Shown: positions 8,581-51,050 of the stretch, one piece after another
How the letters are laid out: the number at the start of each line of letters is the position of its first letter
How positions within the stretch are numbered: position 1 is the stretch's first letter
NCBI GenBank assembly: GCA_945882915.1
Contig: CAMCWV010000005.1
Coordinates: 18,647-82,646 of the forward strand
Direction: 5' to 3'
DNA: 64,000 bases
Source of the DNA: Waddlia chondrophila WSU 86-1044
GTDB lineage: Bacteria; Chlamydiota; Chlamydiia; Chlamydiales; CAMCWV01
Made by a program: the position numbers and the translations under genes
Notes under the pieces: generated by a model
The model's input: only the letters and a program-made list of their open reading frames with translations
What the model was told of the DNA's origin: nothing
The model's database searches: none

Positions 8581-8620
8581 TAATATGTACTCCTCGGTGA
8601 CGATCGGCAAAGGAATATTT

Positions 8621-15532: not shown

Positions 15533-15675
15533 AAGGACTCTTCCTAAAAACCGGTAATGCTCACCACAGAGACGTGAAGGAAAATACGAAAAAGACAGGT
15601 TTTAAAGAGCGAGTGAAACGAGCTCCTTAGAACTTCTCTCTCTCATATTTTCTCTAAGACAAAAGGCTCAAAGAC

Positions 15676-16734
15676 TTATGCAGAGCAGAGTTCGCTCTCG
15701 CAGCTTGGTTCGCCTGCCTCAGCTTCTTCTTGCTTCTGAGGCTTAGAAAAGTCAGCTTCGTGCCAAGGGTAACTATTTAGCAACTCAAGAATTTCAGGAA
15801 TCGACTTTGAACGGTTGATCGACTCGCGAAGACCCCGAACACCCTGTCCATTGCGCAGGAACCAGCAACCTACTCTTCGGGTGTCAAATATCGCCTTACG
15901 CTCATCCTGATAGGCGATGATGTGCTGCACGTGCTCTAAAAGTGCATCTCTGAAGTGAATTGCTGTACGTGTTATGGGAGGCTCTCCAGCAAAATGGCGA
16001 TGGATATCTTCGATAAGCCAAGGCTGTCCCATCATCCCGCGCGCTAGCAAGATCGCATCACAACCGGTATCGATAAAGATTTTTTCAGCACTTTGAACAT
16101 CCACAATGTCCCCATTACCAATGACTTTAATGTTCTTTGCCACTTGCTTACACTCGCGGATATAATCCCACACTGCCGGCCCTTTATAGCCTTGAGAGCG
16201 CGTTCTGCCATGAATACAAATTGCTGCTGCGCCCGCCTCTTCCGCAATGCGGGTCACCTGCGGAGCTACGATGCTATTAGCATCCCATCCCACGCGGATC
16301 TTGACGGTGACAGGGATCTTTACAGCTGCGACCATATTCGAGATGATCTCTCCGATTAGGTCGGGATTTTTAAGCATTCCAGAGCCGCTTCCATCCTTTG
16401 TGACCTTATCGACTGGACAGCCGCAGTTTAAATCAACGACGTCAAAGCCCAAGTCTTCAATGATTTTGGCACACTCGGCTGCAAGTTCTGGCTTGCTGCC
16501 GCAAAGCTGCCCGCCAATAGGGTGCATAGAGGGGTCAAAGTCGAGGTAGCGGTAGGTCCCGGGATGATTACGCACTAGAGCGTCCATCTTGACCATTTCA
16601 CAGTAGACAAGGCCAGGCTGATACTTAACTGCCATCTTCCGGAAAGGGACGTCGGAGCAACCTGCCAAGGGGGCGCAGAAGACATTGGAAGGCAAAGAAA
16701 GGTTGCCAAGAGAGAAGGGGCGCTTTAAAGACAT
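15676..16734 (-). CDS. dus: tRNA-dihydrouridine synthase (DusB-like); the start codon is embedded in an F1 terminus
   Basis: CAPLAGCSDVPFR, DLNCGCP and IHGRT motifs. The 5' context on the coding strand is ctAGGAGtatATG. Confidence 0.88.
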   Translation of the reverse strand: MSLKRPFSLGNLSLPSNVFCAPLAGCSDVPFRKMAVKYQPGLVYCEMVKMDALVRNHPGTYRYLDFDPSMHPIGGQLCGSKPELAAECAKIIEDLGFDVVDLNCGCPVDKVTKDGSGSGMLKNPDLIGEIISNMVAAVKIPVTVKIRVGWDANSIVAPQVTRIAEEAGAAAICIHGRTRSQGYKGPAVWDYIRECKQVAKNIKVIGNGDIVDVQSAEKIFIDTGCDAILLARGMMGQPWLIEDIHRHFAGEPPITRTAIHFRDALLEHVQHIIAYQDERKAIFDTRRVGCWFLRNGQGVRGLRESINRSKSIPEILELLNSYPWHEADFSKPQKQEEAEAGEPSCESELCSA

Positions 16735-16899
16735 ATACTCCTAGTAGCTGAAAATGGGAACTTGGACGGCGCCAAAGCCCCGGGGCTGAACGATCGCAAG
16801 TGCCCTTTGTATTTCTAATACTAAGGCACTTGCGATCGTTCAGCCGCGGGAGCTTTCGCGCTAGCCCAAATTCCCGTTTTCAACTACGAGGAGTATATA
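16733..16899 (+). repeat. F1 element, long form
   Basis: Full palindrome, followed by a further left-end fragment at 16895-16910. Confidence 0.9.
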
Positions 16900-17021
16900 C
16901 TCCTAGTAAAAGCAAAAAGTATAACCAATGGGCAATAAAAATTTTGGCTATTTTAAATGGTTTTTACTAAGATTTCAATTGAAATAAGAAAAAGTAAGTA
17001 TTTTAAAGAATAAACAGGTTG

Positions 17022-27039: not shown

Positions 27040-27114
27040 ATATACTCCGCTTGGCTGAAAACGGGAGCTTTCGCGCTAGTCCAAATTCCCGTTTTCAAAT
27101 AGGAGGAGTATATA
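27040..27114. repeat. F1 element, short form
   Basis: atatactccgcttggctgaaaacggg...ccaaattcccgttttcaaataggaggagtatata. Confidence 0.85.
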
Positions 27115-40314: not shown

Positions 40315-40387
40315 TGCTGGCGAAAGGATTCGAACCCTCGACCGGCCGATTACAAATCGGCTGCTCTACCAACTGAGCTACACCAGC
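40315..40387 (-). tRNA. tRNA-Thr (TGT)
   Basis: Acceptor GCTGGTG/CGCCAGC, D-loop AGCTCAGTTGGTAGAGC, anticodon loop ttTGTaa, T-loop GGTTCGAATCC. Confidence 0.9.
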
Positions 40388-40463
40388 ATATATACTCCTC
40401 TTAGTTGAAAACGGAAGCTTTGGCGCTAGCCCAAATTCCCGTTTTCAACTAAGAGGAGTATAT
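40388..40463. repeat. F1 element, short form, abutting the 5' end of tRNA-Thr
   Basis: atatatactcctcttagttgaaaacgg...ccaaattcccgttttcaactaagaggagtatat. Confidence 0.85.
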
Positions 40464-43443: not shown

Positions 43444-44265
43444 ATGTCCAGCAAACCTCATATCCTTCTTTGCAACGATGACGGCATCCACGCTCCTGGG
43501 CTTTACCACCTATGGCGCGCTCTTCGCACTATTGCCGACATCACCATTGTTGCCCCTTCAACGGAGCAATCTGGAAAAAGCGTAAGCAATACATTTTTTC
43601 ACCCACTGCAAATTGAAAAGGTTCGTTGGGAAGAGAATACTCCTGCGCATGCAGTCAACGGCACGCCTGCAGACTGCATTAAGATGGCGCTTAGCGTTAT
43701 TTTAAAGAGCCCCCCAGACCTCATCGTATCAGGCATTAATGCCGGGTCCAACGCTGGACGCAATGTTCTGTACAGTGGTACTGTTGGCGCTGTTATTGAA
43801 GGAACTATGCGCGGCGTTAAAGGGGTTGCGGTTTCTTGCCTTAACTTTGACACCCCTCGCTTTGAAGTAGCCGAAAAGTATATTGCCCTTGTCATTCAGT
43901 ATGTCTTAACGACCCCGTTCCCTAAAGGAACATTTTTGAACATAAACTTCCCTGATGCCGAAGAGATCGAAGGATTCAAGTTTGCAAGACAAGGAAACAG
44001 CTACTGCGTAGAAGACCCCGACACTCGCACTCACCCTACAGGACGTAAATACTACTGGCTTGGCGGCAAGCACGTCATGCTTGAAGAGCATCACGATAGC
44101 GATATTGAGCTGCTTAGCCAAGGCTATATGACAGCTGTTCCTATTCACATCGCAGACCTCACCGACAAGCATTTACTAGCTTCCCACAGAGACCCCTTCG
44201 AAAAATTATTTCAAAAGAGCCCTAAGAAAGCAGAATGTTTCTCGGGAACCAGCTGCTGCCTTTAA
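43444..44265 (+). CDS. surE: 5'/3'-nucleotidase SurE
   Basis: ILLCNDDGIHAPGL and SGINAGSNAG.NVLYSGTVGA. Confidence 0.9.
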   Translation: MSSKPHILLCNDDGIHAPGLYHLWRALRTIADITIVAPSTEQSGKSVSNTFFHPLQIEKVRWEENTPAHAVNGTPADCIKMALSVILKSPPDLIVSGINAGSNAGRNVLYSGTVGAVIEGTMRGVKGVAVSCLNFDTPRFEVAEKYIALVIQYVLTTPFPKGTFLNINFPDAEEIEGFKFARQGNSYCVEDPDTRTHPTGRKYYWLGGKHVMLEEHHDSDIELLSQGYMTAVPIHIADLTDKHLLASHRDPFEKLFQKSPKKAECFSGTSCCL

Positions 44266-44289
44266 AAACTCTACTGTCGGCATGAGGAG

Positions 44290-44456
44290 TATATACTCCT
44301 CGTAGCTGAAAATGGGAAATTGGACGGCGCCAAAGCCCCGGGGCTGAACGATCGCAAGTGCCCTTTGTATTTCTAATACTAAGGCACTTACGATCGTTCA
44401 GCCGCGGGAGCTTTCGCGCTAGTCCAAGTTCCCATTTTCAGCTACGAGGAATATAT
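44290..44456 (+). repeat. F1 element, long form; its right end supplies the SD and part of the ATG of the next gene
   Basis: Full palindrome ending gctacGAGGAatatAT|G. Confidence 0.9.
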
Positions 44457-44940
44457 GCAAGACTTGAGGTTCACCAAAGTCTTATCCAGATTTTCATGCT
44501 GGATAATAGCTTTAATTCTCACAGCTTTTGGGCTTTTAACAACCAGCTGCCAAAGCAAAGAAGCAAGGTTGCAAGCCAAAAGTCAGCTCAAAGGGGAAGA
44601 AATCATCCGCCAGCTTATTACTGAATTGCAAGACATTCACTCACGAGAAGAGCTCGTAACGGCATCTTCCAAGCTAAAAGCCCTTTTTAACGACCTTGTA
44701 GATGTCATAATCCAAGCAAGAGAACAGGCAGCAGAGCGGGCAGGAAATAAGACTTTGGCAATAAATCCAGAGCAATCTCAAAAGCAAATGACAATTCTCA
44801 GTCAGCAGCTCCAAGTCGAACTTGCGCGGATTTATATATTAGAAGGAGGGCGAGCCCTCACAGAAACAGCTCAGGCCAAGGCGCTTAACCGCCTGGACCT
44901 CTTGGAGAAAAGATCGAAAGGACAGACTTATAGTCGATAA
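44455..44940 (+). CDS. putative lipoprotein, helical
   Basis: Signal peptide ending LLTTSC. Rest uncharacterised. Confidence 0.6.
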   Translation: MQDLRFTKVLSRFSCWIIALILTAFGLLTTSCQSKEARLQAKSQLKGEEIIRQLITELQDIHSREELVTASSKLKALFNDLVDVIIQAREQAAERAGNKTLAINPEQSQKQMTILSQQLQVELARIYILEGGRALTETAQAKALNRLDLLEKRSKGQTYSR

Positions 44941-49335: not shown

Positions 49336-49920
49336 TTATTCCCAGCGCTTGGTGGGAGGAGACTTTAATTTTAGGGCGTCAAAGGCTCTGGCGACGATGA
49401 ATGATTCGACATCGTCCATGTTTTTGGGATGCAAATACCACGCAGGCATAGGTGGTAGCACCACGCCGCCCATACGCGTAATCTTAAGCATGTTCTCAAG
49501 GTGAATTTCGGAAAGGGGTGCTTCACGAGGGACAACAATAAATGGGCGTCTCTCCTTGAGAACAACATCTGCAGCGCGCCGCAAAAGGTTGTCTGCAAGC
49601 CCCAAAGCTATCGCAGCTAAACTTGCCATGCTACAAGGAATAACGATCATCCCATCAGTAAGAAAAGAACCACTTGCAATAGAAGCAGAAAAATCAGAAA
49701 TACTATGACAAGTCACGCGCTTTTGGACCTCTTTAGAATAGAGTTTCATCCACTTCTCGCCACTCGCATACTCTGTGCCAAGCTCTTCAATAGCCGTAAA
49801 GCAAGCACCTTTCGACAAAACAAGGTGGACATGATGCCCTGCAAGGGCAAGTGCTTCTACCATACGATAACCAAGAATAATTCCTGAGGCTCCTGAAACC
49901 CCTACAACAATACGGCTCAT
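49336..49920 (-). CDS. ubiX: flavin prenyltransferase UbiX
   Basis: RIVVGVSGASG, the PCSM.SLAAIA pattern, about 190 aa. Confidence 0.88.
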   Translation of the reverse strand: MSRIVVGVSGASGIILGYRMVEALALAGHHVHLVLSKGACFTAIEELGTEYASGEKWMKLYSKEVQKRVTCHSISDFSASIASGSFLTDGMIVIPCSMASLAAIALGLADNLLRRAADVVLKERRPFIVVPREAPLSEIHLENMLKITRMGGVVLPPMPAWYLHPKNMDDVESFIVARAFDALKLKSPPTKRWE

Positions 49921-50193
49921 ATTATAATATCCTCATCTTAGCTGAAAACTGGAAAAATTATCCTAAACAAGCGCTTGCCCTTTCTAGAAGGTAACGTGGA
50001 CCGCCTAAGGTCTTGGATTTCAGACCCAAGCCTACAACAAACGTTTGATTAGTGGTAGGTTAGACCCCAGACCGGGACGGCTCACGTTGCCTTCTGGAGA
50101 GGGTAAACGCTTGTTTTGAGGCTTCCAGGTGAAAAATCGTGATTTTTGTGGAAACTTAAAGAGCTTGTTTTCAGCTAAGAGAAGGATATAACT
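49921..50193. repeat. composite: degenerate F1 termini enclosing a full F4 palindrome
   Basis: Left ataatatcctcatcttagctgaaaactgg. F4 at 49975-50118 (gaaggtaacgtggaccgcctaaggtc ... gacggctcacgttgccttc). Right gttttcagctaagagaaggatata. Confidence 0.7.
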
Positions 50194-51050
50194 CCTATAG
50201 CGGCAGCCATCATCGTCAACCCAACCCATGTGTTACATGAAAAAAAGACCTGAGGAATTGCATCCAGGGCCTTAGGATTAATTTTACGGTGATAATGAAT
50301 ATAAAGAGAAGCTACCACACCAACGCCAATAAAATAAACGGCCGAAAGCCCCATTAGCACCCCAGCCCAGATAAGCGCTGCCACAGCAACCACATGTGAC
50401 ATACGTGCCACCCATAGCGCCCCCTGAGCCCCTAATACCACAGGAATGCTCCGCAGCTTGTGCCCAGTATCAAATACATGGTCTTGAATTTGGTATATGA
50501 CATCCATTCCAGCTAGTGAAGCGAGAGCCGCCACCCCAAGGAGTACTGGCGGCCAGGCAAGAGAGTCTGTGATTGCTATCCAGGCACAAAAAGGGGCAAA
50601 AAACTCGATAAGCCCCAGAACAAAATGACAAAGCATAGTGAAACGTTTAGTGTACGAGTATCCCCAAAGAAGAAGGATAATAAACGGCGACAGGGCCAAG
50701 CAAATGTTGTTGATCAATCCAGCAACGACAACACCTCCAATAACCGATCCCCAAGCAAGTAACATCACCTGTCTTGGAGAGACCTCCCCCTTTGGAATAG
50801 AGCGATCTTTTGTTCTTGGGTTGTCAGCATCGATGTGCCTATCAATCAAGCGATTAAAAGACATCCCTGCAACTCTAGCAAAGCAAAATCCTAAAACAAT
50901 CCACACGCTTTTTAGACCAAAAGTGCTCCAATTAAAAGAGTTAGCAAACGCCGGATCTGCAAAAGGCAAAATCGCACCTATAACGGCCCAAGGCAACCCA
51001 AAAAGAGTTTGCTCAACCATAATTAATTTCTTAAAGACTGCCCAACGCAT
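50175..51050 (-). CDS. ubiA: UbiA-family aromatic prenyltransferase (4-hydroxybenzoate polyprenyltransferase-like / MqnP-like)
   Basis: NRLIDRHIDADNPRTKDR motif, second Asp-rich region, 8-9 hydrophobic segments. The stop and last codons lie in the degenerate F1 terminus. Confidence 0.85.
   Translation of the reverse strand: MRWAVFKKLIMVEQTLFGLPWAVIGAILPFADPAFANSFNWSTFGLKSVWIVLGFCFARVAGMSFNRLIDRHIDADNPRTKDRSIPKGEVSPRQVMLLAWGSVIGGVVVAGLINNICLALSPFIILLLWGYSYTKRFTMLCHFVLGLIEFFAPFCAWIAITDSLAWPPVLLGVAALASLAGMDVIYQIQDHVFDTGHKLRSIPVVLGAQGALWVARMSHVVAVAALIWAGVLMGLSAVYFIGVGVVASLYIHYHRKINPKALDAIPQVFFSCNTWVGLTMMAAAIGVISFS

Follow-up and report, generated by a model that had tools for sequence, protein, structure and literature searches.

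In a 64,000-nucleotide (nt) stretch of a chlamydial genome (contig CAMCWV010000005.1 of assembly GCA_945882915.1, positions 18,647 to 82,646; hereafter the window), and throughout the assembly to which it belongs, the ends of a short palindromic repeat that we call F1 lie directly against the start codons of genes. The reading that we favor, at a probability of roughly 0.55, is that the F1 end is the default ribosome-binding site of about 37 genes, and that this is a by-product of the insertion preference of the element, tolerated as an adequate Shine-Dalgarno (SD) sequence rather than acting as a regulatory device. The original prediction, made from the window alone, had proposed that several genes start at or just after an F1 end and that this end is a portable SD and start context. 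The former claim extends to 37 cases genome-wide, with starts backed by homology in about 20 of them. The latter stands as far as the by-product is concerned, with a native-like spacing of GAGG and displacement of the native SD, but not as regards regulatory use.

The analysis covered the whole assembly (1.76 Mb, 38 contigs, 47% G+C; a metagenome-assembled genome, or MAG, 94% complete), for which our own simple codon-usage gene caller yielded 1225 genes at a coding density of 81%. When, for every F1 end, the distance to the following called start was measured, 37 F1 ends were found to abut a called gene start within 0-7 nt: 19 genes start at GAGGAGTATATG and 8 at GAGGAGTATATATG, none at the offset between these two, and 1-4 at each later offset. 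The N-termini of about 20 of these genes, including dusB, ubiX, trpS, murG, dxr, carA and fliQ, were checked by profile coordinates or orthologues. In the NCBIfam alignments residue 1 falls on profile position 1 in CarA, FliQ, Dxr, GpsA and UbiX, is at most 3 residues off in the MntA-like protein, GcvPA, MurG, PrmC, MutL, TrpS and FliI, and at most 7 residues off in UvrC, IspE, KdpD and RidA. The checked set includes essential genes, and trpS, murG, dxr, ispE, dnaE, lpxK, carA, gpsA, uvrC and mutL are each present in a single copy; the only copy-number exception among the checked genes is dusB, which has a distant Dus paralogue (38% identical). The affected genes are functionally mixed (trpS, murG, dxr, carA, fliQ, kdpD, dusB and others), with no shared theme. 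The junction between F1 and start is identical across independent metagenome assemblies at trpS, carA, murG, gpsA, ridA, the sigma-28 gene, the mntA-like gene, lpxK, ubiX and a lipoprotein-like gene, and when empty sites were sought at these same loci only occupied ones were recovered; chimerism is possible in some of the short metagenome contigs whose beginning lies inside a repeat. Judged from these alignments, the gene starts at F1 ends are real.

F1 itself is a lineage-specific, TA-duplicating, palindromic MITE (miniature inverted-repeat transposable element). Its 21-nt end, TTTTCAGCTACGAGGAGTATA, occurs 733 times genome-wide at up to 4 mismatches; at up to 1 mismatch there are 642 occurrences in this genome against none in 200 other genomes of the order. 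Within the window GAGGAGTATAT is found 38 times at up to 1 mismatch, compared with 0.57 expected from shuffles. Read outward, the end is GAGGAGTATA. The 256 complete copies, which are 70-165 nt long, dispersed and devoid of coding capacity, fall into size classes of about 71, 98 and 164 nt, and have terminal inverted repeats with arms of 32-87 nt that are 84-100% complementary and a consensus end of TATACTCCTCGTAGCTGAAAA. Copies are about 96% identical to their nearest relative, with a pairwise median of 85%. Either end carries at its tip a TATA that is 95-98% invariant, in agreement with a duplication of TA. Mobility is supported by the position and orientation of the copy at dus, which differ between assemblies, and by carA, which occurs with one or two full copies. 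A search for PF13358 (DDE_3, of IS630/Tc1-type transposases) gave no match in the assembly, though a missing insertion sequence copy is possible in a MAG that is 94% complete, and no Rfam family matches F1. The close relatives of DusB are all from uncultured Chlamydiota MAGs, and no genome of the same family was found among those sampled; going by these comparisons, F1 is restricted to this Chlamydiota lineage. We also considered GCGATCGC within F1 as the cyanobacterial HIP1 element, pointing to a cyanobacterial origin, and dropped it given that the close DusB relatives are all Chlamydiota MAGs.

The pile-up of F1 ends on start codons is explained in the main by where the element inserts. The base after GAGGAGTATA is T in 78% of ends and the next base is A in 44-51%, from which the target preference reads as a palindromic A/TA/T. 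A T-preceded start codon gives TA followed by T, the preferred target, and hence the accumulation on ATG is mainly one of insertion preference. This was quantified with a neutral model that starts from the TA sites upstream of 1011 genes lacking an F1 nearby, weights them by the flanks of 480 ends that are not adjacent to genes, and is normalized to insertions 21-80 nt upstream of gene starts. The model predicts 12-17 insertions exactly on the ATG against 19 observed, and 34-37 insertions 3-20 nt upstream of starts against 30 observed; the occupancy is 5.8% for tATG gene starts and 4.1% for non-coding TA-TG sites. Selection for landing on the ATG was accordingly rejected, as the neutral TA+T model covers the main spike. 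There is no depletion either: F1 on a start codon is tolerated as well as F1 in the spacer, and F1 does not seek genes. Only one class, with the end TATATATG, exceeds expectation: 8 were observed where 1.3-2.0 are expected, i.e., 4-6 times as many (e.g., C3:62769, C16:21825 and C12:21346); gene starts of this type are occupied in 8 of 24 cases, compared with 7% of the equivalent non-coding sites. Candidate causes of the excess are a better SD spacing, slippage of (TA)n, or a stronger preference for TATATA than was modeled.

The motif that the F1 end offers at these starts can be compared with the native SDs. Upstream of native genes the most frequent spacer is 6 nt for GGAG (range 5-9), 4-7 nt for GAGG and 5 nt for GGAGG, and a core motif (GGAG, GAGG or AGGA) is present at -18 to -4 in 38% of them. 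From the GGAG, GAGG and AGGA peaks we infer that the host probably has a canonical anti-SD; the 16S gene is absent from the assembly, and the GAGGAG of the F1 end matches the canonical AGGAGG core. In the main class of F1 ends GAGG lies 5 nt before the ATG, within the native range, and GGAG 3 nt before it, while in the TATATATG class GAGG and GGAG lie at 7 nt and 5 nt respectively, both in the native range. An exact GAGGAG survives in 33 of the 37 ends that abut a start and in 510 of 696 others (p=0.03). At murG, dxr and mutL the start is preceded only by a truncated, hairpin-free F1 end, with no partner arm detected, and the GAGGAG of F1 is the sole SD candidate.

Once F1 has inserted, the native SD lies beyond the element, on its far side. 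An SD-like motif is found in the 14 nt before the far end in 54% of the start-abutting copies compared with 14% of those elsewhere (p=1e-5), and displaced native SDs can be recognized individually: the arrangement is GGTGGAAAA-F1-TATG at the sigma-28 gene, AAGGA-F1-TATG at ridA and TAAGAGGGGTA-F1-TATG at trpS. Far-side flanks resemble F1 ends in 36% of the start-abutting copies and in 8% of those elsewhere, because a displaced GGAG-type SD is already complementary to the CTCC of the arm. The sequence of events that we propose would hence be as follows. A tATG start would offer F1 its target (TA then T, preceded by A); the duplicated TA would rebuild the ATG; the outward F1 end would place GAGGAG directly upstream of this rebuilt ATG, and the native SD would be carried to the far side of the element. 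The GAGGAG of F1 would then be the SD that is actually used, and the hairpin of a complete copy would be opened constitutively, for which cleavage of the long stem by RNase III, or a ribosome finishing the upstream gene, are candidates.

The dus locus of the window, for which the coordinates are given in Table 1 together with those of the other loci, illustrates these points in nature. That dus starts at an F1 end, as had been proposed, is borne out by AGGAG-TAT-ATG at the junction and by the start being orthologous to that of the closest relative (MSLKRPFSLG vs MFLKRPFSLG; the codons are ATG TCT TTA AAG CGC CCC TTC TCT vs ATG TTT CTA AAG CGT CCA TTT TCC in the relative). An exact-protein look-up recovered an identical DusB in five other assemblies, and two haplotypes can be distinguished: in haplotype A (the window, L104, L107 and L108) F1 sits on the ATG, while in haplotype B (L105 and L106) F1 is absent from the ATG and a copy of the opposite orientation is present 26 nt further upstream. 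Two different TA sites are thus in use. Haplotype B retains the native dus leader, ...TTTTTTGCTTTTACTAGGTTTATATG, with ACTAGGTTTATATG directly before the dus ATG, where haplotype A has the far-side flank. The alleles A and B show 2 synonymous differences, and L108, which has the A arrangement, shows 8, all in third codon positions; this may be taken as soft evidence of constraint on the protein, as the look-up itself selects identical proteins. The far-side flank reads ACTAGGAGTATA in A and ACTAGGTTTATA in B, and the change of TT to AG perfects an inverted repeat with the F1 arm, which looks like a template-switch correction of a near-palindrome. Hence the idea that F1-like stumps are old F1 remnants in every case was dropped, the stump at dus being the native leader with two changed bases. 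But for about 5 differences in 164 nt, the F1 copy of A is the reverse complement of that of B, and a local hop with inversion is thereby suggested. Where haplotype B has its F1, the window reads GGTTATACTTTTT (16917-16930, +) against an inferred empty site of GGTTA-TTTTTT; the extra bases could be an excision footprint.

Complete copies are predicted to fold into long hairpins that take up the SD. The dus leader, folded from the promoter-like site (16978-16950) to +35, has a predicted free energy of -133.6 kcal/mol and an unpaired probability of about 0 for the SD; the SD and bases 1 and 2 of the AUG are paired. Across the complete start-abutting copies the predicted median unpaired probability is 0.000 for the SD hexamer and 0.40 for the AUG, compared with 0.25 for the SD of truncated ends; the predicted stems are 35-80 bp long and contain runs of 11-23 bp. 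Pairing of the SD with the other terminus of the element, as originally proposed, is therefore what RNA folding predicts, with full pairing in complete copies. The further proposal that this occlusion controls expression is unsupported: complete copies make up 76% of those at gene starts and 72% of those elsewhere (p=0.85), the positions are those expected under neutrality, and no promoter-like site was found inside the dus F1 copy. An internal or terminal F1 promoter was accordingly rejected, the best promoter reading of the F1 end by inspection being TTCCCG-17-TATATN with 8/12 matches. Selection against hairpins at gene starts was likewise rejected, as complete and solo ends are about equally frequent there and elsewhere, and basal-stem pairing (17/23 vs 52/60) does not differ significantly. 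Leaderless translation via a -10 element in the F1 end was considered and set aside, since TAAGAG/TACGAG, at the right distance, lack the invariant final T. So was a stump acting as a decoy that pairs with CUCCUC to free the SD, since in the dus fold that includes the stump the SD stays paired. As to a signal-dependent open state, the only competitor seen in the dus fold, pairing of the far-side flank with the distal arm, leaves the SD paired.

The setting of the copies bears on whether these hairpins are transcribed. The upstream gene is co-directional for 30 of 36 start-abutting copies (83%, against a baseline of 69%; p=0.07) and divergent for 6, and in 22 of 36 the gap to the co-directional upstream gene consists essentially of repeat alone. 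Such a gap leaves no room for a separate promoter, so that the hairpin would be part of the mRNA unless F1 brought its own promoter. For 10 of 27 complete start-abutting copies the upstream stop codon is located inside the distal arm or no more than 12 nt before it, as compared with 50 of 467 others; examples are the junction of the ubiA-like gene with ubiX, lpxK, and trpS, where a TAA lies 8 nt before the arm. These counts are what plain insertion into tight junctions would give. An RNase III gene (rnc, 240 bits) is present in the assembly.

Several observations weigh against the F1 end as a working ribosome-binding site. An SD motif is wanting at -18 to -4 in 62% of native genes, and initiation in this organism may not need one; the stronger AGGAG register of the main class has a 3-nt spacer that is rare natively; and the extra conservation of GAGGAG at gene starts is weak and uncorrected for multiple tests. 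In 28 of the 37 cases the copy is complete with its SD predicted to be fully paired, so that a working SD would need an opening step, and the fact that complete hairpins are not depleted fits constitutive opening but equally fits irrelevance of the SD. The caller behind the gene calls is crude and home-made, and neutrality of the positions 21-80 nt upstream of starts is an assumption of the neutral model. Initiation might be independent of the SD, relying on an A/U-rich unstructured start region or on S1, with GAGGAG being irrelevant and the insertions tolerated for that reason. Besides the scarcity of GGAG, GAGG or AGGA before native genes, such a mode of initiation would account for the native dus leader of haplotype B, which has only AGG, and would draw on the partial accessibility predicted for the AUG (median 0.40) despite the paired SD. 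We nevertheless consider it rather improbable: the native genes that do have an SD show a clear and well-placed signal, several of the displaced leaders had good SDs (GGTGGA, AAGGA, GAGGGG), GAGGAG is somewhat better kept at gene starts, and binding of the 30S subunit would still be impeded by a stem of -45 to -200 kcal/mol that ends at the AUG. That the open reading frames (ORFs) are merely open by chance at an ATG made from the terminal AT and a following G, with the true starts downstream, is hardly credible and has been largely refuted. It is true that 89 ends followed by G create an ATG, only 20 of which open an ORF of at least 100 codons, and that a TTG three codons downstream may be the start in the lipoprotein-like gene; yet profile or orthologue alignments reach residues 1-7 in about 20 cases, and independent gene callers on other assemblies give the same full-length products.

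The remaining alternatives assign the hairpin a role. The F1 hairpin could be a control element in which the SD is alternately hidden and exposed through promoter choice or regulated processing; its full pairing in complete copies, the promoter-like site upstream of the whole element at dus and the presence of an RNase III gene would agree with this, as would the Correia elements of Neisseria, which RNase III either cleaves or protects, affecting the adjacent genes (PMC2649163). Against it, the genes are a functional mixture without a common theme, the insertion positions fit a neutral target choice, ends with and without a hairpin occur equally often at gene starts, the dus copy yielded no internal promoter, and dus occurs in nature with and without a hairpin on its ATG while the protein is the same. 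We regard such control as quite unlikely. Alternatively, the palindrome may simply fold out, bringing the upstream stop and the displaced native SD next to the ATG, as a split ribosome-binding site or with coupling kept, while the buried SD of F1 goes unused; where the stop lies inside the distal arm, the terminating ribosome would unzip the base of the stem and free the start region. There is precedent in the phage T4 genes 38 and 25, where a hairpin between the SD and the start codon brings both together, and in classic coupling, where translation of the upstream gene opens a structure that hides the start site of the next. The frequent stops near or in the distal arm (10/27 vs 50/467) and the SD-like motifs just before this arm in 54% of copies would favor it, as would the ubiX element, where a ribosome stopping at the TAG (50177-50175) in the distal arm would open the base of the stem. 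However, 54% is about what the native SD frequency predicts (about 38-50%), so that no selection is apparent, almost half of the cases are without a far-side SD-like motif, six copies have a divergent upstream gene, the co-directional context is not significantly enriched, and the stems of such hairpins, where known, measure 5-8 bp rather than 30-80 bp; such bridging is possible but doubtful. As tentative is the wider proposal that F1 is a junction-compatible transposon, whose palindrome renders insertion into tight operon junctions almost harmless and acts as a mobile hairpin that bridges translational coupling. The inward arm, which has stop codons in 2/3 frames within 18 nt, would stop the upstream gene; the outward end would rebuild the SD and the ATG; and the folded stem would return the stop and the native SD to beside the start, with the ribosome re-initiating across the stem or unzipping its base. 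If true, this would explain how F1 could attain a density of one end per 2.4 kb where genes are so closely packed.

Among the contributions already known from small hairpin repeats are promoters, RNase III sites, stop codons and protein tails. A stem-paired SD or start that is unmasked by cleavage or by an upstream ribosome is familiar from E. coli adhE, phage lambda N, the early mRNAs of T7 and the coat-replicase junction of MS2; these are, however, single evolved leaders, whereas the F1 stem is a mobile element present at dozens of genes, where unmasking would have to occur likewise. A close parallel is with the Correia elements (CREE/NEMIS) of Neisseria, whose stems are RNase III substrates and alter the expression of neighboring genes (PMC2649163, PMC3184786). 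Like F1 these are TA-flanked palindromic MITEs of several size classes (about 70-160 bp for Correia) that abound in spacers, and they are often found 5' of genes and within transcripts. No sequence relationship between the two is seen on inspecting the ends, they belong to different phyla, and the ends of Correia elements are known for supplying promoters and an IHF site rather than an SD together with a rebuilt ATG (PMC2649163). The density of F1, with 733 ends in 1.76 Mb, is far higher, and RNase III cleavage of F1 is only a candidate process. The REP2 repeats of Neisseria have no terminal inverted repeats and carry a promoter; F1 differs from these and from IR-A/IR-B of Borrelia in having its SD in the terminal inverted repeat and its ATG from the target duplication, with no promoter found. 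The mycobacterial MIRUs are short mobile repeats at start codons in operons, with the downstream gene remaining translated (PMC12548453); they act via a coupled small ORF with a 4-nt overlap, whereas F1 is a hairpin without need of an ORF reading through, whose end offers an SD and an ATG. F1 thus joins traits of the compared systems, including Correia elements and MIRUs, in a new sequence family and a new phylum.

By the favored reading, about 3% of the genes of a reduced chlamydial genome, single-copy essential ones among them, would have had their ribosome-binding region replaced by F1, with the arrangement fixed across independent samples; the shape of a transposon end may hence decide where the transposon survives. 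This gives annotators working on this lineage grounds for accepting start codons that fall on repeat ends. The two dus haplotypes, and complete versus truncated copies, provide a natural test on start sites locked in stems of 35-80 bp. Were the hairpin indeed to bridge or gate translation between neighbors, mobile DNA would have a new means of rewiring operons.

Three further loci of the window had been listed as starting at F1 ends, and they fared differently. At the lipoprotein-like gene the F1 end does lie at the ATG at 44455; its homologues in other chlamydiae align only from residue 16, so that the start would be either this ATG or the TTG three codons later. At ubiX the position of the start is correct, residues 1-194 aligning with positions 1-185 of 187 of the profile, but the context is not that of a regular F1 end: the element is a degenerate composite in which GAGG has a spacer of 10 nt from the ATG, compared with 4-7 nt in native genes. 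A perfect TATAAT (49921-49926, minus strand) is found in this degenerate F1-like end directly before the ubiX ATG. At tag the F1 end cannot be a start context, since from the in-frame TAG at 27100 to the conserved N-terminus (profile position 1 at residue 11) there is no ATG, GTG or TTG but only the ATA at 27112; tag is, as its reading frame indicates, a case of a start lost at an F1 end.

Table 1. Features of the dus, tag, lipoprotein and ubiX loci, in positions of the window
Feature	Position	Strand	Remarks
dusB gene, 352 aa	15676..16734	-	TIGR00737, 364 bits, residues 10-322 on profile 2-314
dus start context, CTAGGAGTATATG	16732..16744	-	AGGAG 16742-16738, spacer TAT 16737-16735, ATG 16734-16732
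Complete 164-nt F1 copy, from dus ATG to upstream leader	16734..16897	-	Ends TATACTCCTCGTAGCTGAAAA...TTTTCAGCTACGAGGAGTATA; terminal TA gives the A of the dus ATG
Far-side flank, TTACTAGGAGTA	16898..16909	-	Displaced native dus leader, two bases altered to mirror the F1 arm
Promoter-like TTGAAA-17-TAAAAT toward dus	16950..16978	-	Consensus match only, 10/12; upstream of the whole F1 copy; identical in both haplotypes
Short 74-nt F1 copy	27040..27113	+	Right end overlaps the 5' end of the tag frame
tag 5' end	27100..27114	+	In-frame TAG 27100-27102, GAGGAG 27103-27108, ATA 27112-27114
GAGGAGTATA stump before left arm	44284..44293	+	18 nt past the stop (44263-44265) of a co-directional SurE-family gene (Pfam)
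Complete 164-nt F1 copy	44292..44455	+	Right end GAGGAA 44446-44451 abuts ATG 44455-44457; junction the same in L109, L110 and L112
Lipoprotein-like ORF, 161 aa	44455..44940	+	Homologues in other chlamydiae
ubiX start context	49918..49934	-	GAGG 49934-49931, 10-nt spacer including TATAAT, ATG 49920-49918
Degenerate F1-like composite, about 261-270 nt, from ubiA/mqnP-like gene to ubiX	49921..50190	-	Proximal end GCTAAGATGAGGATATTATAAT before ATG; identical in L113-L115
Stop TAG of UbiA/MqnP-like prenyltransferase gene (50175-51050)	50175..50177	-	Inside the distal arm of the element

A number of additional observations concern the repeats of this genome more generally. By our own gene calls, repeats with at least 4 copies make up about 44% of the non-coding DNA (146 of 329 kb). 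There are 54 solo F1 ends of 13-17 nt, and 20 of them stand immediately in front of a full copy's left arm. The outward end of the CTAAGAGG subfamily holds a TAA in frame with the rebuilt ATG (TAA GAG GAG TAT ATG). F1 ends adjoin RNA genes too, as seen in an end (40390-40400, minus strand) that lies 3 nt upstream of a tRNA gene (40315-40387, minus strand). A second repeat family, of the GGAGCGAG...CTTTGGAGTGCTGGGAC type, is represented by an internally deleted stump in the window (about 15585-15625), L104 and L107, and by a full copy of about 230 bp downstream of dus in L105 and L106; the difference indicates either a deletion of the interior of the palindrome or a polymorphism of presence and absence. 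Finally, upstream of carA on contig C29 (start at 8604, minus strand), the last approximately 20 residues and the stop codon of the 6-phosphogluconolactonase are encoded by a half F1 copy, and between this gene and carA there are, depending on the sample, one or two further full F1 copies.

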